Source: Patescibacteria group bacterium (GTDB taxonomy: Bacteria > Patescibacteriota > Patescibacteriia > SG8-24). Taken from it: a DNA stretch of 64,000 nucleotides. The notes beneath the pieces were generated by a model that saw only the letters and a list, made by a program, of their open reading frames with translations, was not told where the DNA came from and searched no databases. A program made the position numbers and the translations under genes. Below are positions 4,623-59,472 of this stretch, one piece after another. Location: assembly GCA_028714475.1 (NCBI GenBank), contig JAQTNC010000001.1:86678-150677 (forward strand). The letters are read 5' to 3'. Every line of letters starts with the position of its first letter. The first letter of the stretch is position 1.

Positions 4623-4689
4623 ATGATCATGATGAAGATTGATGCGGATATCTTAGCATTTTCTCAAATTGGATGCACTCGGCGTCAGC

Positions 4690-4757
4690 GCCCCTCGACT
4701 CCGCTTCGCTCCGCTCGGGTAAGAAATACGTTCTGGCCCGAGCCTGTCGAGGGGCAG
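4690..4757. repeat. palindromic intergenic repeat, family 1, copy A (full element)
   Basis: cccctcgactccgcttcgctccgctcggg - spacer - cccgagcctgtcgagggg; arms are inverted complements. Confidence 0.8.
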
Positions 4758-5351: not shown

Positions 5352-5414
5352 ACCCCTCGACTCGCTACGCTCGCTCGGGGAATATTTGTTCTTGCCCGAG
5401 CGAAGTCGAGGGCA
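5352..5414. repeat. family 1 palindromic repeat, copy B (full); its right arm supplies the GAGGG SD of the next gene
   Basis: acccctcgactcgctacgctcgctcgggg...cccgagcgaagtcgagggcaag. Confidence 0.8.
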
Positions 5415-5416
5415 AG

Positions 5417-5959
5417 ATGAAAAATATGAACGACGCCGAAAACAAGAAGCTCGACGATCTGCTCGCGCGGTTCGACAAGATGAAGGCCGACAACAAGGCC
5501 GACCTTTCCTCGGATGAGGACCTTTCCATCGCCGTCATGAACCTCGTCTCCATCGAGGAGCACCTGTTCTTCACCGGCGCGAAGATGGAACAGCCGCAGT
5601 ATTACGACCTGCTCGCCGAGGTGCGCGAGACGCGCAAGCAGCTGATGAAGAAGCTCGTGAAGAATCCCGAAGGCGAGGTCTGGTGCATCTCGAAGCACCT
5701 GCTCGCCGCGTCCATGCGCATCATGGAAGTCGGCACGAAAGCGCTCGGTGCCGGCCGCAAGGACCAGGCGCGGGAACTGTTCGAGAAGGCCTACGGCGTC
5801 TATGCCCTGTTCTGGGGGCTCAATCTCGGCGTCGTGAAGGCGGAAGGTGTGAAGGCCATCGACGACAACGCGGTCAACCGCCACGACACGGAAAAGAAGG
5901 GCCTCATGGGCAAGCTCGGCGACCTCGTGAAGAAGGCCATTGATTGCTGCATTGAATAA
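5417..5959 (+). CDS. hypothetical protein
   Basis: ATG at 5417 with GAGGG 6 nt upstream; no recognisable family. Confidence 0.5.
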   Translation: MKNMNDAENKKLDDLLARFDKMKADNKADLSSDEDLSIAVMNLVSIEEHLFFTGAKMEQPQYYDLLAEVRETRKQLMKKLVKNPEGEVWCISKHLLAASMRIMEVGTKALGAGRKDQARELFEKAYGVYALFWGLNLGVVKAEGVKAIDDNAVNRHDTEKKGLMGKLGDLVKKAIDCCIE

Positions 5960-6034: not shown

Positions 6035-6847
6035 ATGTTCCGCGAAGGCGCACCAAATCCCGAAATGAAGGAAACCAATCCCCTGCAGGCCAAGGTGGAC
6101 CGCGCGTTTGAGCTGGTCGCGTTGAGCGGCTTGTCCGACGAATTTCTCGACGAACGGCGCGATCAGGAGGTGTTTGAGGCGATGGAGTCGCTCTTGGCGG
6201 AACCGATAACAGCAAATTTTGGTGAAGGGTATGAATTGAGTTACGGCGAAAGCTACAGGCTGAAACACGCGGATAATGCGACCCTGGCGCGCCGCGAATC
6301 GCACAACACCAGGGGCGAGTTCGAGCCAACGGAATCCTTGATGGTGATCTGGGGCTACGAGCTGGACCTTCCCTCGGGCCGGCTCCAGATCAACTATTCG
6401 GTGTTCGGCAAAGACCGCGATTCGGACGGATGGGACAGGTGGTTGTATAAGGTGCCGGTGCTCGAAAATCAAGAAAGGGCTTTTGTCGCGTCGCCTGACG
6501 CCATCAGGAAAATCTACGAACGCCTGGAAGCGGAACACGCCGAGAGGGTCGAGAAATACGAAGCCGAGGCCGACGAATACGAAAAGGCGGCCGCCTGGGT
6601 CACGCAAAACGCCAAAAAGAAATTCCGCGCCGACGACCCCCTTCCGGACGCCCTTTCGAAGTGGCACTGGTATATCGAAGGGAAAACCTGGTCAGCTGAA
6701 TTTGACACCAGGCCAAGCCATGAGGGAGAGATTAACATCAATATCTGGAACGATCACGCGGAATCAGTTGACGACATCTGGGGTATTCCCGAACCCCTTC
6801 TGCCCGAACGCCGGTATCCGCCGAGACCGGAATCGCAGAAAAAATGA
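6035..6847 (+). CDS. hypothetical protein (acidic, Trp-rich C-terminus)
   Basis: 270-aa ORF, no recognisable family. Confidence 0.5.
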   Translation: MFREGAPNPEMKETNPLQAKVDRAFELVALSGLSDEFLDERRDQEVFEAMESLLAEPITANFGEGYELSYGESYRLKHADNATLARRESHNTRGEFEPTESLMVIWGYELDLPSGRLQINYSVFGKDRDSDGWDRWLYKVPVLENQERAFVASPDAIRKIYERLEAEHAERVEKYEAEADEYEKAAAWVTQNAKKKFRADDPLPDALSKWHWYIEGKTWSAEFDTRPSHEGEININIWNDHAESVDDIWGIPEPLLPERRYPPRPESQKK

Positions 6848-6978
6848 TTATTCACGAAAACGCCGACCGCGAGGCCGGCTTTTCATTACTAAAACGATCC
6901 GTCCCGACAGGCGGACGGATCGTTGTCCCAAGCCGAGGGCCGGCTTGGAAATGTCTGGCGAGGCCGAGCAGCGTTGGT

Positions 6979-7374
6979 TCACCACCACGGAACGATGATG
7001 ACGTCGTCGGGGCCGACCGTACTCGGCCATTGTCCCCAACTTTTTTGCCAACAGCTATAGTGGGCGCTCCAATATAGGCATTCCACTGTCTGACCCCTCA
7101 TGTAGTCAGGTTGCACGGTCTCGGCAAAGATGATGCGGTACTTCCTCCACCAGATCGGCAGGCGCCATGAACTGGTCAGCCACTGGTTGCGGCGATTTTC
7201 GGGAACCGCCCGCTTGGGTGACCGAGCCGCCAGCTCCTCCAGGCTGTGTGTGTAGTCCCTCTGCCCTTTGGGCAGCTGGATGACGCGGCCGTGGCGCATG
7301 AACGGGAACAGCACGATGCCAATGAACCAACCGATGATCCAGTCGTAGAAAGCCACTTCCCAATCTTTTTTCAT
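6979..7374 (-). CDS. hypothetical Trp-rich protein with N-terminal TM helix
   Basis: start moved to Met8 (GGAGG 8 nt upstream). Confidence 0.55.
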   Translation of the reverse strand: MKKDWEVAFYDWIIGWFIGIVLFPFMRHGRVIQLPKGQRDYTHSLEELAARSPKRAVPENRRNQWLTSSWRLPIWWRKYRIIFAETVQPDYMRGQTVECLYWSAHYSCWQKSWGQWPSTVGPDDVIIVPWW

Positions 7375-7543
7375 TTCATACCTCCGGAATTCCAACTGCG
7401 GTGTGCGGCTGGATGGACAACGGGAGACCTTGGCCCCGCCCCAGCCGTCGGCAGCCCATCAAAGATGTGCTGCCCACCGCCGAGGCGTAACCAAAGAGCC
7501 GTTGTCAAGGAACACGGCACTTTCGCATGTTTTCGGACGTTTG

Positions 7544-8464
7544 TCAATAGGTCACGTCCAGCACCGAAATCTCCGGTCGGCTGAAGAGGCGGGCGCGGGG
7601 GCCGGACTCGCCGACGCCGGGCGTGATGAAAAGTTGGGTGCGGCCGTAGCGGAACAGGCCTTGGTCGTATTCCTGACCGATGGAGATCGGCAATCGCGCA
7701 ATCGGACCGACGAGCGGCAGGCGGATCTGCCCACCGTGCGTGTGGCCGGCGATGAGCAATTGGACATTGTTGACCTCGGCCGTCCGAACCGCGTCCGGGC
7801 TGTGGGCGACGACGATGCGAAAAGCATTATCCGGCACGCCAGCGAGCGCCTTGTCCCAATCGTCGTGGCCGTATTCCATGTCGTCAATGCCGATGAGCCA
7901 GGTCTGCGGGTGATCCTCGACGACATCCGGCAGCTGAATGGCGCGATTCACGAGGGTCTTCACGCCGACCGAGCCGAGCCGCTCGCGCACCGTGACCGCG
8001 CCGACGCGATAGTCGTAATTGCCGAGCACGGCCCAAACGCCGAGCGGCGCGCGGAAGCCGCGGAATGCGGAAAAGGCCGCCGTGCCGGCTGCGGTTGTGA
8101 CCAGATCGCCGTCCAAGATGATCAAATCAGGTTGCGCGTCGTTAGTCGCGCGAACGACCTTTTCGGCCCAGGCGAGTCCCTTGTACGGGCCGAAATGCAT
8201 GTCGCTCACGATGGCAACGCGCAGATGTGCGCCGGTTTCGCCGAGCGCCACCGGATATTCCTTGACGGTCAGGAAACGCGGCGCGATGAAACTGCCATAC
8301 ACAACCGCGAGCCAGAAGACGACGGCGAGGACGGCGAAGAAAGGCCGCATGGAGCCAAGCGCCAACTTCTTCCTCTTCACCCACAACTCAACAACATAAA
8401 GTGGCACCGCCGCGATGATGACGGCGATGACCGCGTCGAATTGCCAACCAGGGAAGAGGGGCAT
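7544..8464 (-). CDS. metallophosphoesterase (calcineurin-like, YkuE-type) with N-terminal TM helices
   Basis: DMHFGP, GDLV, GNYD, GHTHGGQ motifs. Confidence 0.85.
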   Translation of the reverse strand: MPLFPGWQFDAVIAVIIAAVPLYVVELWVKRKKLALGSMRPFFAVLAVVFWLAVVYGSFIAPRFLTVKEYPVALGETGAHLRVAIVSDMHFGPYKGLAWAEKVVRATNDAQPDLIILDGDLVTTAAGTAAFSAFRGFRAPLGVWAVLGNYDYRVGAVTVRERLGSVGVKTLVNRAIQLPDVVEDHPQTWLIGIDDMEYGHDDWDKALAGVPDNAFRIVVAHSPDAVRTAEVNNVQLLIAGHTHGGQIRLPLVGPIARLPISIGQEYDQGLFRYGRTQLFITPGVGESGPRARLFSRPEISVLDVTY

Positions 8465-8471
8465 GGCTTGC

Positions 8472-8549
8472 GTAGCGGCAGGGTTTACCCCTGCACCACC
8501 ATAATTCAGACTCTTGTTACGGTGGTGGCGGGATAAACCCGCCCGCTAC
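8472..8549. repeat. family 2 REP-like hairpin (GTAGCGG...CCGCTAC), ~29-bp imperfect stem
   Basis: gtagcggcagggtttacccctgcaccacc / ggtggtggcgggataaacccgcccgctac. Confidence 0.75.
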
Positions 8550-8554
8550 AATAT

Positions 8555-12694: not shown

Positions 12695-12708
12695 GTTGGT
12701 TGGGATTA

Positions 12709-12737
12709 GGTGGCGCGCGACAGGGTCGCGCCGCTAC
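12709..12737. repeat. family 2 repeat, half copy (right arm)
   Basis: ggtggcgcgcgacagggtcgcgccgctac, near-identical to the right arm at 14996-15024. Confidence 0.6.
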
Positions 12738-14297: not shown

Positions 14298-14456
14298 GTT
14301 TGCTCCAATCTCCAAGGAACACGCTATAAGGAGATTAGCGCGACTCACCCGGTTGTCAAGCTTAGCGAGCCGAAAAGCCTATCCTTTCTCTCGTCCACCG
14401 CCCCAACAGCCGGGATTTGACTGATTTCCCAACCGATGATAATCTCCTAAGCGTTA

Positions 14457-14620
14457 GAGCCTATCCCAATAGGTATTCGCGGCGCGAAAGCGGACGTTTC
14501 CCGCAGGGACCGGCGCGAGAAACCTCGTCGAAATATCTAGGGATATTCCTCCTCGGTTTTCGCGCGGCCCTGCGGGAAGCCTCCCGTTTTCGCCTCGCAA
14601 ACCCCTATTGGGATAGGCTC
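14457..14620 (+). ncRNA. candidate structured RNA or leader: 166-nt long imperfect hairpin with a perfect 18-bp terminal stem, directly upstream of rpmE
   Basis: agagcctatcccaatagg pairs with cctattgggataggctct; inner halves ~80% complementary; apex hairpin aatatc-tagg-gatatt. Confidence 0.3.
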
Positions 14621-14636
14621 TTAATCCGGCATCAAT

Positions 14637-14906
14637 ATGAAGAAAGAAATCCATCCGAAATACTATCCTGAAGCCAAAGTCGTCTGCGCCTGCGGCAACA
14701 CCTTCACGGTCGGCTCGACCGTCGAGAGGCTGGATGTCGAGTTGTGTTCGGCCTGTCACCCGTTCTACACGGGCAAGCAGAAGATCGTGGATACCGCCCG
14801 CCGCGTCGAGAAGTTCCAGGAGCGCGCCGCCAAGAAAGATACGGGCAAGCTCGCCGCCAAGAAAGCCAAGGTGGCGGAACGCAAGACCGCGAAAGCAAAG
14901 AAGTAG
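14637..14906 (+). CDS. rpmE: 50S ribosomal protein L31 (Zn-ribbon form, Lys-rich C-terminal extension)
   Basis: [10 protein letters not shown], CxC...CxxC. Confidence 0.9.
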
Positions 14907-15024
14907 CGGTGCAAAGACGGGGCGGGGTTGTAATACCCAGCTCCGTTTTGAATAGAATGAACGTAGCGGCCGGACCCTGTCCGGCACCACGAATAAGGTG
15001 GTGCGCGACAGGGTCGCACCGCTA
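14903..15024. repeat. family 2 REP-like composite hairpin between rpmE and prfA
   Basis: gtagcggtgc...gcaccgctac outer; inner gtagcggccggaccctgtccggcaccacg / ggtggtgcgcgacagggtcgcaccgctac. Confidence 0.7.
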
Positions 15025-15032
15025 CAAATCAT

Positions 15033-16100: not shown

Positions 16101-16116
16101 TATGCCCGAATCCACG

Positions 16117-16157
16117 GCTCCAGCACTCCAGCGCTCCAGCACTCCAGCACTTCACCA
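16117..16157 (+). repeat. tandem 9-mer repeat (CCAGCACTC/CCAGCGCTC) x4, CAGCACT family
   Basis: ctccagcactccagcgctccagcactccagcacttcacc between prfA stop and the next start. Confidence 0.7.
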
Positions 16158-16167
16158 AGCCGTCATC

Positions 16168-16836
16168 ATGGCGGCTGGCCTCGGCACGCGCCTGCGTCCG
16201 CACACGCTCGAGACGCCGAAGCCGCTCTTGGCCGTCGCTGGTCGGCCGATCCTAGAATGGAACATCGATGCCTTGCCTAAGGAAATCGAGGAAATCATCC
16301 TCGTCGTCGGCTACCTACAAGAAAAAATACGCGAACATTTCGGCGCCGAGTGGGGTAGCCGACGTGTGCGCTACATCGAGCAGGCGGAACTCAAGGGCAC
16401 GGGCCACGCGCTCTTCGCCTGCCAGAACCAGCTGCACGACCGCTTCCTCGTGCTGAACGGCGACGATTTGTACGGCGTGGACGATTTGGCGGAACTCGCG
16501 CGCCACGACCTCGCCATTCTCGCCAAGGAGACGAACAAATCCTGCCGTTACGGCGCGTTCCACACCGACGAGCAGGGGCGGCTTCTTGCCATCATCGAAG
16601 GCGGCGAAACCCAGCCCGGCGCGCTCGTGAACGCCGGTGCTTACGTCCTCGACCGCGACATCTTCGACTGCCCGCTCGTGCCCATCCGCGACGGGAAGGA
16701 ATTTGGTCTGCCGCAGACCGTCGTCCTGCTCGCCCAAAAACGCCCGGTGGACATCGTCCGCGCCAACTTCTGGGTGCCCATCGGCTTTCCGGATGATTTG
16801 GAAATCGCGACCGCAGCGCTGCAGGAGCGGCTATGA
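16168..16836 (+). CDS. sugar-phosphate nucleotidyltransferase (RmlA/GlmU-like N-terminal domain)
   Basis: MAAGLGTRLRP (GxGTRLxP) motif; alternative ATG at 16102 would add a repeat-encoded N-extension. Confidence 0.7.
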   Translation: MAAGLGTRLRPHTLETPKPLLAVAGRPILEWNIDALPKEIEEIILVVGYLQEKIREHFGAEWGSRRVRYIEQAELKGTGHALFACQNQLHDRFLVLNGDDLYGVDDLAELARHDLAILAKETNKSCRYGAFHTDEQGRLLAIIEGGETQPGALVNAGAYVLDRDIFDCPLVPIRDGKEFGLPQTVVLLAQKRPVDIVRANFWVPIGFPDDLEIATAALQERL

Positions 16837-22995: not shown

Positions 22996-23062
22996 AATGG
23001 TGGCCTCCCAAAGGCTTGGTCGAGTAATCTTTATCGTTCTTGCCCGACCCGCGTGGAGGGCC

Positions 23063-23150
23063 TGCCCCTCGACTCCCCCTTCGACTCGCTTCGCTCGCTC
23101 AGGGTCCGCTCGGGGAAGAACGGGGGGGCTCCGCTCAGGGAATATTGTTT
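23063..23150. repeat. family 1 palindromic repeat, copy D (expanded; ~60 nt near-identical to the copy inside rlmN, opposite orientation)
   Basis: ctgcccctcgactcccccttcgactcgcttcgctcgctcagggtccgctcgggg... Confidence 0.8.
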
Positions 23151-23879: not shown

Positions 23880-24170
23880 GGGGTCGCCCTTTAAGGCCGG
23901 TCGAGCGAGCGACGGCTCGGTCCCCCTCACCATTCCGACGCCGGAATGGTGAGGGGGCGTCGCGAGCGAAAGTTATTCAGCCGAGCGAAGCGAGCCCCGG
24001 AATCCGCCGCAGGCGGATATCCGGGGGAAGGCCGCCGCTGGAGCGGCCGAGCGTGCCGAAAGGGCGACCCCACCCGGCCGGACGTTTGTGGTTGACGTTG
24101 CCCCTCGACTTCGCTCGGGGCAGAATAATTGAATGGATCCTCCCCGCAGTACTGCGGGGAGGATAACATT
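23880..24170. repeat. repeat-rich noncoding cluster: 14-bp perfect hairpin (23925-23958), family 1 fragments (23958-23998, 24100-24125) and family 3 palindrome cccgcagtactgcggg (24141-24168)
   Basis: seen in sequence. Confidence 0.65.
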
Positions 24171-30376: not shown

Positions 30377-30458
30377 TAGAGTGCTGGAGGAATTGTTTGG
30401 GTCCCTATTTGTTTATCAAGTTTTTTCTTCAGTACTTCAGCACTTCCCCGCTCCAGCA
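30377..30458. repeat. CAGCACT-family repeats (agtgctggag ... cttcagtacttcagcacttcc ... ctccagcact)
   Basis: inverted copies flanking a ~60-nt spacer. Confidence 0.55.
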
Positions 30459-30484
30459 CTTCCTTTTTTGTGGTCTGAAAAAGC

Positions 30485-31457: not shown

Positions 31458-32594
31458 ATGGCTGACTATCCAAAAATCCGTCATGAAATTTTCCAAGCGC
31501 TTTTTCCGGAAGCGCCGGCTTATCGCTGGCGTCAGGCTGAGGAAGCGCTTTTTCGGCCGGGCGCGACAGGCTGGTCAGACGCCACTTCCCTGCCCCGCGA
31601 GATGCAGACGACGCTTGCGGAAAAGATGCCGTGGATTTCCGTAGCGCCTGACAAAATTCTGTCGAACGCGAACGGCGACACGCACAAGGCCGCCTTGCGC
31701 CTCGCGGACGGTGCCATCATCGAAACGGTGCTCATGCGCAACCGCCGCGGCCAATGGACAATCTGCACCTCGAACCAGGTCGGCTGCGCCATGCGCTGCG
31801 CCTTCTGCGCCACCGGCCGGCTGGGCTTCACCCGCAACCTGACGGCGGACGAAATCGTGGACCAATATCGATTTTGGAATACCTGGCTCTCCGCCTCCTC
31901 GTTCTCCCCCGAGCGGACCCTGAGCGAGCGAAGCGAGTCGAAGGGGGAGTCGAGGGGCAGCAGAGATACTAAGAATGAGGATGATGTGTCCGCATCGACT
32001 CGCATCAGCAACCTCGTCCTCATGGGCATGGGCGAACCGCTGGCGAACTACGACAACGTGAAGGCCGCGCTGAAAACGTTGCTCAAACAAACAGACCTCG
32101 GCGCGACGCGCGTCACCGTTTCCACCGTTGGCCTTCTGCCGGGTCTCGAAAAACTACTCGACGACCCTGACTGGCCGCCAGTGCGTCTCGCCATCTCGCT
32201 CCATAGCGCCGATCAGGCCGTGCGCGAAGGCATCATGCCGACCACCATCCCCGACTACCTGCCGAAGCTCGGCGACTGGGTGCGCCGCTATCTCAAGAAG
32301 CACGGCAACCGCCGCCACCATCTCACTTTCGAATATGTCATGCTGGCGAACGTTAACGACGAGCCCCGCCACGCGGCCCAACTCGCCGGTTTCGCGAATG
32401 CCGCCGGCCACGTGAAAATCAACCTCATTCCGTACAACTACACTGACTCGCAATTCTCCGGCTCGGCCGACGAGGTGATCGCCGACTTCCAGAATTTTCT
32501 CGAGCAGAAAGGGGTAACCGTAACCGTTCGCCGCTCGATGGGCCAAGACATCGCCGCCGCGTGTGGTCAGCTGGCCAATAAACTATTGAAATAA
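31458..32594 (+). CDS. rlmN: 23S rRNA/tRNA m2A methyltransferase RlmN (radical SAM), with a ~28-aa in-frame insertion encoded by a family 1 repeat
   Basis: CAMRCAFCATG radical-SAM cluster, MGMGEPL; extra ~28 aa between the EIV and ISNLV segments relative to E. coli RlmN. Confidence 0.9.
   Translation: MADYPKIRHEIFQALFPEAPAYRWRQAEEALFRPGATGWSDATSLPREMQTTLAEKMPWISVAPDKILSNANGDTHKAALRLADGAIIETVLMRNRRGQWTICTSNQVGCAMRCAFCATGRLGFTRNLTADEIVDQYRFWNTWLSASSFSPERTLSERSESKGESRGSRDTKNEDDVSASTRISNLVLMGMGEPLANYDNVKAALKTLLKQTDLGATRVTVSTVGLLPGLEKLLDDPDWPPVRLAISLHSADQAVREGIMPTTIPDYLPKLGDWVRRYLKKHGNRRHHLTFEYVMLANVNDEPRHAAQLAGFANAAGHVKINLIPYNYTDSQFSGSADEVIADFQNFLEQKGVTVTVRRSMGQDIAAACGQLANKLLK
31904..31958. repeat. 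family 1 palindromic repeat, copy F, inserted in-frame in rlmN
   Basis: cccccgagcggaccctgagcgagcgaagcgagtcgaagggggagtcgaggggcag, reverse complement of copy D. Confidence 0.85.
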
Positions 32595-35238: not shown

Positions 35239-35270
35239 AAAAGGCCCGCCACCCGGCGGGCTTTTGGTTT
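35239..35270 (+). terminator. rho-independent terminator after nusG
   Basis: gcccgcc-accc-ggcgggc followed by TTTTGGTTT; near-identical to the terminator after rplA. Confidence 0.8.
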
Positions 35271-35297: not shown

Positions 35298-35362
35298 TAT
35301 AGTGCTGAAGATGGGGGCGCTGAAGTACTGAAGAAAAAACCTTCAGCACTTCAGCACTCCAG
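35298..35362. repeat. CAGCACT-family palindromic hairpin
   Basis: agtgctgaag...gctgaagtactgaag-aaaaaacc-ttcagcacttcagcactccagc. Confidence 0.65.
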
Positions 35363-35378
35363 CAATTCCCCACTCTCT

Positions 35379-39274: not shown

Positions 39275-39299
39275 GTAGCGGGGTAAACCCGCCCGCTAC
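39275..39299. repeat. family 2 minimal hairpin (gtagcgggg-taaaccc-gcccgctac) between rplK and rplA
   Basis: seen in sequence. Confidence 0.6.
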
Positions 39300-39348
39300 G
39301 ATAAATTGTGGGAGGCCCGAATACGGCCGTCCGCACCACGAAAAGCAT

Positions 39349-40046: not shown

Positions 40047-40077
40047 CCGACCCCGCCACCCGGCGGGGTTTTGGTTT
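40047..40077 (+). terminator. rho-independent terminator after rplA
   Basis: ccccgcc-accc-ggcgggg followed by TTTTGGTTT. Confidence 0.8.
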
Positions 40078-50237: not shown

Positions 50238-50270
50238 GCCGAAGCCAGGCCGGAAAGCACAATAAAATAT

Positions 50271-50333
50271 GCCCTGAGCCTGTCGAAGGGCGTATTTTTT
50301 GCATTCCCTTCGACTTCGCTCAGGGAATATAAG
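50271..50333. repeat. family 1 palindromic repeat, copy G (arms in swapped order)
   Basis: gccctgagcctgtcgaaggg...cccttcgacttcgctcaggg. Confidence 0.7.
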
Positions 50334-54127: not shown

Positions 54128-55108
54128 TCACCGGCTACTTTTGCCCCTGTTTTCGCGTCTGTTCTTGAGCCAAGCACCAGCGAGCCGAAAGGCCGTTTTC
54201 GGCGATGCAACCCAACGAATCGCGGCGTCTCTTTTGAACCAGGCCTGCTGTCGCTTGGCAAAACGGCGCGTGTCGCGCTTGATTCTGCGCACCGCTTCCT
54301 CAAGGGTCGTCTCGCCACGCAGGTATCCGCCCAACTGACGATGACCGAGGCTCGTGAGCACCGGCGCGTCCCAGCCGTAACGGCGACCGAGACGCTGCGC
54401 CTCCTTGAGGAGCCCGTCTTTCATCATGCGGTCAACGCGCTGGTCTATCCGCCGATACATTTCCTCGCGTGGCCGACTGACGCCGATCTTCAGTACGTCG
54501 AAAAGGGGTTCTCCTTTTTGTTGAAGGTCGGTCATGGTGCGTCCGGTCGCCCGCATGACCTCTAGCGCACGAATGATGTAACGAGGATTCCGCCCGGCTC
54601 GCGCCGCATAGGCAGAGTCTTTCGCAACTAATTCTGCCCCGAGCTTGTCGAGGGGCAGTTTGGCACATGCTGCTCGGAACTTCATGTCCGGTGGAGCTTC
54701 CGGCATCTGAAAATTATCCGCTACGGCGCTCACATACAATCCGGTGCCGCCGCAAAGAATTGGCAGACGGCCGCGCTTGATGATTTCCCGCGCTTTCCTG
54801 ACCGCCAACGTCTTGAACTCCGCGAGCGTGATTGGCTTGGCTGGCGACCGGAAAGCAATGAGATGGTGTGGCACGCCTTGCGCGATATACACGCGCCGTG
54901 CGCCGCGCTTTACCCACTTACCAGGAATGATGTCCGCGCCGATATCCAAACCACGATAAAACTGCCGCGAGTCCGCGGAAATGATTTCGCCGTTGAATTT
55001 CCTGGCGAGCGCAATCGCCAAGTCCGTCTTCCCCGCCGCCGTCGGACCGAGAATAACAAGTAGCGGCGGGGTGCGGCACGAAGACTTGGAGTGCCGCACG
55101 GGCGGCAT
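54128..55108 (-). CDS. miaA: tRNA dimethylallyltransferase
   Basis: GPTAAGKT P-loop and MiaA core; start at internal ATG 55108. Confidence 0.88.
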   Translation of the reverse strand: MPPVRHSKSSCRTPPLLVILGPTAAGKTDLAIALARKFNGEIISADSRQFYRGLDIGADIIPGKWVKRGARRVYIAQGVPHHLIAFRSPAKPITLAEFKTLAVRKAREIIKRGRLPILCGGTGLYVSAVADNFQMPEAPPDMKFRAACAKLPLDKLGAELVAKDSAYAARAGRNPRYIIRALEVMRATGRTMTDLQQKGEPLFDVLKIGVSRPREEMYRRIDQRVDRMMKDGLLKEAQRLGRRYGWDAPVLTSLGHRQLGGYLRGETTLEEAVRRIKRDTRRFAKRQQAWFKRDAAIRWVASPKTAFRLAGAWLKNRRENRGKSSR

Positions 55109-59340: not shown

Positions 59341-59363
59341 AGCAGCACGCATACGCATGTTCT

Positions 59364-59393
59364 TCCCCGAGCGGAGCGCAGCGGAGTCGAGGG
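59364..59393. repeat. family 1 repeat, copy H (left arm, reverse orientation)
   Basis: cttccccgagcggagcgcagcggagtcgaggggc. Confidence 0.7.
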
Positions 59394-59472
59394 GCGGGCG
59401 GCAGGCCCTCCACAAGGTCGGGCCAGAACAAAAGCCGCCGATTTCGCCGGCGGCTTTCTCATTGTGCCGAGA

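Follow-up and report, generated by a model that had tools for sequence, protein, structure and literature searches.

Tourist MITEs and PIF-Harbinger elements, both found in eukaryotes, are flanked by a 3-bp TTA/TAA duplication and have an IS5-related DDE transposase as autonomous partner. Among the MITEs of prokaryotes, Correia and RUP are tied to other IS families and to TA targets. The definition of a prokaryotic MITE includes a length of less than 500 bp, the presence of TIRs and flanking direct repeats, the absence of a transposase and a transcript that forms a stable stem-loop; co-transcription with the neighbouring genes is possible (PMC10969869). Elements of 0.8-1.0 kb that have two ORFs in a frameshift layout make up the IS427 group within the IS5 family; 2-bp duplications are listed for them, with one member showing 4 bp (PMC3281130).

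The window, i.e. the whole 64-kb stretch of Patescibacteria DNA that was analysed, contains a long imperfect hairpin immediately upstream of rpmE. This hairpin is very probably a non-autonomous IS5-family MITE, in which two 17-bp TIRs surround a lineage-specific palindromic core and which encodes no transposase (Table 1). Among transposable elements it is of an ordinary kind. The first-pass annotation had offered three readings of the hairpin, namely a 6S RNA, a ribosomal-protein leader and a single-copy MITE, and it is the last of these that is borne out, by TIRs identical to IS5-family ends, by the TTA/TTA flanks and by its absence from this position in five relatives. The structural features that define prokaryotic MITEs are found in this element, which is shorter than 500 bp, carries TIRs, is flanked by direct repeats, lacks a transposase and is predicted to form a stable stem-loop. 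The core itself does not credibly encode a protein, and the ORFs that cross the element are mechanical.

Table 1. Features of the rpmE upstream region, in positions of the window, and carriers of the same TIR in other Patescibacteria MAGs.
Feature	Position	Strand	Description	Basis
Promoter-like block	14417-14445	+	TTGACT (14417-14422), 17-nt spacer, TG (14437-14438), TAATCT (14440-14445)	conservation
Alternative -10 of the promoter-like block	14438-14443		GATAAT	
Left copy of the target-site duplication	14454-14456	.	TTA	sequence and family flank statistics
Left TIR	14457-14473	+	GAGCCTATCCCAATAGG, 17 bp	identical to IS5-family IS and MITE ends
MITE core	14474-14603	.	imperfect palindrome, 72-84% complementary, with apical mini-hairpin (14532-14547)	
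Right TIR	14604-14620	-	CCTATTGGGATAGGCTC on the + strand	inverted repeat match
Right copy of the target-site duplication	14621-14623	.	TTA	
rpmE	14637-14906	+	ribosomal protein L31, 89 aa	PF01197
Small member in Paceibacterota (L051)			158 bp, target-site duplication TAA	
Small member in Nomurabacteria (L024)			189 bp, target-site duplication TAA	
Small members in Saccharibacteria (L031, L040)				
TIR ends in Moranbacteria (L042, L084, L101)			three TIR ends	

The rod measures 166 nt and is closed at its base by a perfect 18-bp stem, AGAGCCTATCCCAATAGG, which joins positions 14456-14473 to 14604-14621 and was located by a repeat finder and an 18-mer scan. A perfect stem of this length had been annotated before, with coordinates that were off by one base: in the arms 14457-14474 and 14603-14620, 17 bp do pair, but T14474 and C14603 remain unpaired. 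Since the TTA present on both sides is the target duplication, the element proper extends from 14457 to 14620 (164 bp, with perfect 17-bp TIRs), and the 18-bp stem owes its outermost A:T pair to the duplication. According to the repeat finder, the outer arms (14456-14493 and 14584-14621, 38 nt) are 84% complementary, and the inner segments of the rod reach 76% and 72%. The mini-hairpin reported at the apex is likewise present and has the sequence AATATC-TAGG-GATATT. The rod stops 15-16 nt before the ATG at 14637 and the gene upstream is divergent, which agrees with the original description of the site. The 18-mer occurs in the 64-kb window at the two arm sites alone, even with up to three mismatches allowed (0.01 occurrences expected), and the hairpin is therefore present there in a single copy, as had been stated.

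Each TIR contains a mini-palindrome, CCTATcccaATAGG (14459-14472 in the left one), which is found likewise in every TIR of the family, so that each end alone would be able to form a 5-bp hairpin. A sequence similar to the initial 10 nt of the TIR (GAGCCTATCC), namely AAGCCTATCC (14375-14384), lies some 75 nt ahead of the MITE; it could be a solo end that has decayed or a match by chance.

When the region is folded as RNA, the minimum free energy is -107.5 kcal/mol for the + strand and -116.3 for the - strand, with z of -10.7 and -10.6, respectively, and none of the 200 dinucleotide shuffles folds equally well, confirming that the hairpin noticed upstream of rpmE is real. The non-coding strand is the slightly better folder of the two, and the stem contains five G-U pairs on the + strand versus four on the - strand; comparison of the G-U counts and folding energies between the strands gave no sign of selection at the RNA level. 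The pairing symmetry is that of a DNA palindrome, without one-strand RNA selection, and because both strands fold about equally well the hairpin does not point to a selected RNA.

A search of the whole window against Rfam at gathering thresholds returned no match, and the segment 14250-14750, searched at E<=10, returned only three meaningless sub-threshold matches, to a miRNA, a snoRNA and a lncRNA (E 1.9-9.5). These results bear on the proposal of a stand-alone structured small RNA gene similar to 6S RNA, a reading with which the shape of the rod and its length, which is within the 6S range, are compatible. Neither 6S RNA nor any other family is matched in Rfam, however, the rod is nearly fully paired and lacks the central bubble, the absence of which had been named in advance as an argument against 6S RNA, both strands fold equally in the manner of a DNA palindrome, and the hairpin is not conserved in five relatives. 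A 6S-like gene at this position is thus scarcely credible.

The TIR of the window element is shared by a large family. An exact scan for the 17-mer, with one genome per species, found at least 119 stretches. Among the matches listed, the carriers include Chthonomonadaceae, Methyloversatilis, Polyangiaceae and other Myxococcales, Planctomycetota, Chloroflexota (Ktedonobacter), Bacteroidota and Enterobacterales, the last including plasmids, as well as several CPR lineages and DPANN archaeal MAGs. Pairing of each exact end with its nearest inverted partner at <=4 mismatches gave, among the matches listed, 75 elements with the one in the window included; 62 of them are 57-225 bp long, 11 are 816-1065 bp long and two are intermediate (488 and 626 bp). 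Rod hairpins that span the whole element are predicted for many small members (z from -7 to -13), and the cores vary between lineages. In a BLAST comparison of the window element with the 119 TIR-bearing loci listed, similarity was confined to 17-23 nt at the ends and the core had no relative beyond the TIR. A scan of metagenome contigs with the subfamily pattern AATAGGKRTTYGCGRSGCGAAA gave three matches, all of them unrelated chance sequences without TIRs.

The long elements provide a potential autonomous partner for the MITE, since IS5-family elements of 816-1065 bp in other genomes end in the identical 17-mer. Full-length examples are found at 6763-7662 of locus L066, 2146-3072 of L019 and 2476-3342 of L088. 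Four of them (867-938 bp) were examined and each possesses two overlapping ORFs; those submitted to profile scans match DUF4096 and DDE_Tnp_1_2/DDE_Tnp_1 in Pfam and the IS5 family transposase NF033580 in NCBIfam. Homologous copies on enterobacterial plasmids carry the annotation 'IS5 family transposase', and a transposase homologue adjoins the TIR in about 30 loci among the matches listed (tblastn). Within the 64-kb window, tblastn with the IS5 transposase of the family found nothing below E = 1. The window element has the properties of an IS5-family derivative of the IS427/IS1031-like type: ends that begin with GAG, a 3-bp TWA duplication and a partner that contains DUF4096 and DDE_Tnp_1_2. 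The combination of GAG ends with a 3-bp duplication is, presumably, that of the IS1031 group of ISfinder. By their sequences, the TIR-sharing elements appear IS427- or IS1031-like within the IS5 family, with both groups fitting in part.

The flanks of the family members show a common target preference. Among the matches listed, 122 of the 140 ends have TAA or TTA as the triplet outside the 17-mer, and in 55 of the 60 elements with TTA/TAA on both flanks the two triplets are identical, forming a direct repeat, where about 30 would be expected if the flanks were independent. The window element is bounded by TTA and TTA; for one element a 3-bp duplication alone is weak evidence, given that two TWA flanks agree by chance about half the time.

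A chance or locally arisen fold-back palindrome with no link to transposons would be in keeping with the single copy in the window and with a core not found elsewhere in the loci and metagenome contigs searched. It would leave the ends of the hairpin as a coincidence, as both of them match, 17 of 17, the TIR of more than 100 elements that have the same TWA flanks. Such an origin is vanishingly improbable and is ruled out by the TIR and duplication statistics.

A broader reading, of low probability, is that a single IS5-type system of transposase and TIR, its 17-bp end invariant, has spread over many bacterial phyla, CPR and DPANN archaea and has repeatedly yielded lineage-specific rod-shaped MITEs out of unrelated cores. 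The sequence of the TIR was not found in the literature searched. In DPANN archaea, a Micrarchaeota locus (L004, 4360-5325) contains a complete IS5-family element of 966 bp with the same TIR and a TTA duplication, in loci of Iainarchaeum (L034) and Nanoarchaeia (L086) an IS5 transposase is matched in part, beside the TIR at the edge of the locus, and in an uncultured archaeon (L037) the TIR occurs alone. The sharing of the 17-bp TIR with DPANN archaeal MAGs suggests cross-domain spread, or mis-binning. The 17-mer is also found once in each of six IMG/VR viral contigs (L129-L134).

In the window, tsf, rpsB and a hypothetical gene lie on the - strand, divergent from rpmE, prfA, an NTP transferase gene and prmC on the + strand, and the order is the same in the relatives. 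The L31 protein is 100% identical to one from an NCBI 'Patescibacteria group bacterium' MAG (P0001). Five syntenic relatives with the arrangement tsf-rpsB-hyp <> rpmE-prfA (L001 and L121-L124) were used for comparison, and their L31 proteins are 74-80% identical to that of the window. In these five, the rpmE leader comprises about 30 nt from a conserved block to the ATG and contains neither a hairpin nor the repeat core. The block is invariant in all six genomes as TTG...TG.TAA.CTCC, represented in the window by TTGACT and by TGaTAATCT, which ends at 14445, and its distance to the ATG is equal in all six once the MITE is removed. In-silico removal of 14457-14623, the MITE together with one TTA, renders the window colinear with the five relatives from the block to the ATG. 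The empty site reconstructed in this manner reads CTCCTAAGCGTTAATCCGGCATCAATATG; the relatives, at 74-80% identity in L31, are too diverged to provide it base for base. The absence of the hairpin in the five relatives, together with the colinearity after excision, indicates that it is an insertion into a short rpmE 5' UTR. A Shine-Dalgarno sequence is not recognisable in any of the six rpmE leaders (14624-14636 in the window, and those of L001 and L121-L124), which are about 25-35 nt long and rich in A, U and C.

Leaders of L31 are known in other phyla and are represented among the ribosomal-protein leader families of Rfam. The position of the hairpin directly upstream of rpmE would suit an autoregulatory leader of L31, or another cis-regulatory RNA native to rpmE, which was the second of the initial readings. 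Against it stand the lack of any relevant Rfam match at E<=10, the short leaders without hairpin in the five orthologous rpmE upstream regions and the nature of the termini, which are transposon TIRs with a target-site duplication. A native leader is extremely unlikely on this evidence, and Rfam, the five relatives and the TIRs with their duplication effectively refute it.

The conserved block, which ends with a -10-like hexamer, is taken from its conservation to be the putative promoter of rpmE. It was not called in a generic sigma-70 scan, and neither a sigma-70-type site nor a terminator was found at the hairpin; the scan thus lends no support to an attenuator role or to a promoter directed outward from the right TIR. 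The MITE begins 11 nt past the -10-like hexamer and ends 16 nt ahead of the ATG of rpmE.

For the origin of this arrangement and its consequences we infer mobilisation in trans, co-transcription and whatever effect there may be on rpmE expression. Recognition of the TIRs by an IS5-family DDE transposase supplied in trans would have led to insertion at a TTA and to duplication of this triplet, with the target lying by chance within the short 5' UTR of rpmE. Transcription from the conserved block would begin a few nucleotides before the rod, and the rpmE mRNA would carry a hairpin of some 70 bp at its 5' terminus. The AUG and the 10 or so nucleotides that precede it are unpaired in the predicted fold, so that initiation of translation need not be blocked. 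As long as transcripts continue to start at this block, the insertion is probably tolerated. The hairpin would act at most as a 5'-terminal stabiliser or as a target of RNase III. MITE-containing transcripts in other bacteria are processed or stabilised, and by analogy with Correia and ERIC, RNase III could act on the hairpin, or the hairpin could alter mRNA stability (PMC10969869).

A further step would be exaptation, in which the MITE arrived by transposition and has since taken on a function in the rpmE leader of this Patescibacteria lineage. As a 5'-terminal rod it would counter 5'-end-dependent decay, or it would tune the synthesis of L31 as a site for RNase III or for a binding protein. 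The location inside the presumed 5' UTR, just downstream of the -10-like hexamer, would allow this, as would a predicted fold in which the extreme 5' end is paired and the region of the AUG stays open. It is also consistent with intact TIRs and duplication in an insertion that is tolerated in a ribosomal-protein gene, and with the processing or stabilisation of MITE transcripts seen elsewhere (PMC10969869). However, the element is known from a single genome and missing from five relatives, so that conservation cannot be shown, and the quality of pairing has no strand bias in favour of the transcript, the - strand being the better folder. Exaptation is on balance unlikely, though if true it would mean altered stability or processing of the L31 mRNA in this lineage.

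The window contains several other repeats. Dispersed GC-rich palindromic repeats occupy intergenic positions 4689-4757, 5386-5426, 23036-23129, 24102-24128, 31893-31960, 50267-50327, 54632-54658 and 59359-59396; they consist of motifs like CCCGAGC...GTCGAGGG and CCCCTCGACTCC...GCTCGGGG in both orientations and include a 68-nt pair (23062-23129 and 31893-31960) that is 96% complementary. By sequence, this family looks REP/REPIN-like. The 93-bp MITEs of Methyloversatilis, which have the same 17-bp TIR as the window element, possess cores of similar CCCTTCGAC/GTCGAAGGG and GCCCTGAGC motifs. A 33-nt repeat, ATwAGGTGGyGCGCGACAGGGTCGCrCCGCTAC, forms a GC-rich stem-loop and occurs twice with 91% identity, in the rpsB-tsf spacer (12705-12737) and in the rpmE-prfA spacer (14993-15025), with both copies on the + strand despite the opposite operons. 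Two more stem-loops are repeated, GTrGCGGGrTAAACCCGCCCGCTACrATA at 8525-8553 and 39275-39303, and the terminator-like CCCGCCACCCGGCGGGsTTTTGGTTT at 35245-35270 and 40052-40077. A tandem repeat with a period of 8 nt (CTCCAGCA / CTTCAGCA) is found at 16102-16169, 30427-30470 and 35333-35376, the first of which lies at the start of the NTP-transferase ORF that follows prfA and encodes an N-terminal protein repeat of the TPAL/QRSS type.

Annotation of the rpmE hairpin as a MITE keeps a transposon relic out of the catalogues of candidate small RNAs and riboswitch-like leaders. The phrase 'miniature inverted' was not found in the CPR/Patescibacteria papers listed by the literature search. A ribosomal-protein gene evidently tolerates the copy in the window, between its start codon and the promoter-like block. 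The 17-bp end, base-for-base identical in very distant bacteria and in DPANN MAGs, is a possible tracer of the horizontal spread of the IS5 lineage.

The IS-derived MITEs of prokaryotes, such as Correia/NEMIS of Neisseria, ERIC/YPAL of enterobacteria and RUP of S. pneumoniae, are likewise shorter than 500 bp, with TIRs, a short duplication and no transposase. They share with the window element an intergenic location and a long stable stem-loop if transcribed (PMC10969869). The window element differs from them in the sequence of its TIRs, in its core and in its parent IS family. Unlike Correia, ERIC and RUP, it is seen in one copy, within a 64-kb window, and an effect on transcript processing or on expression may be proposed for it by analogy only.

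The long elements that share the TIR are similar to the IS427 and IS1031 groups in their size of 816-1065 bp, their GAG start, their 3-bp duplications and their two overlapping ORFs, and they match NF033580 and DUF4096 with DDE_Tnp_1_2. The window element, in contrast to the insertion sequences of the IS5 family, has no transposase and has the 17-bp ends alone in common with them. With Tourist and PIF-Harbinger it shares the TWA duplication, as measured here, whereas the TIRs differ and the hosts of the latter are eukaryotic. This likeness reflects a common IS5/Harbinger ancestry and not membership in the eukaryotic group.
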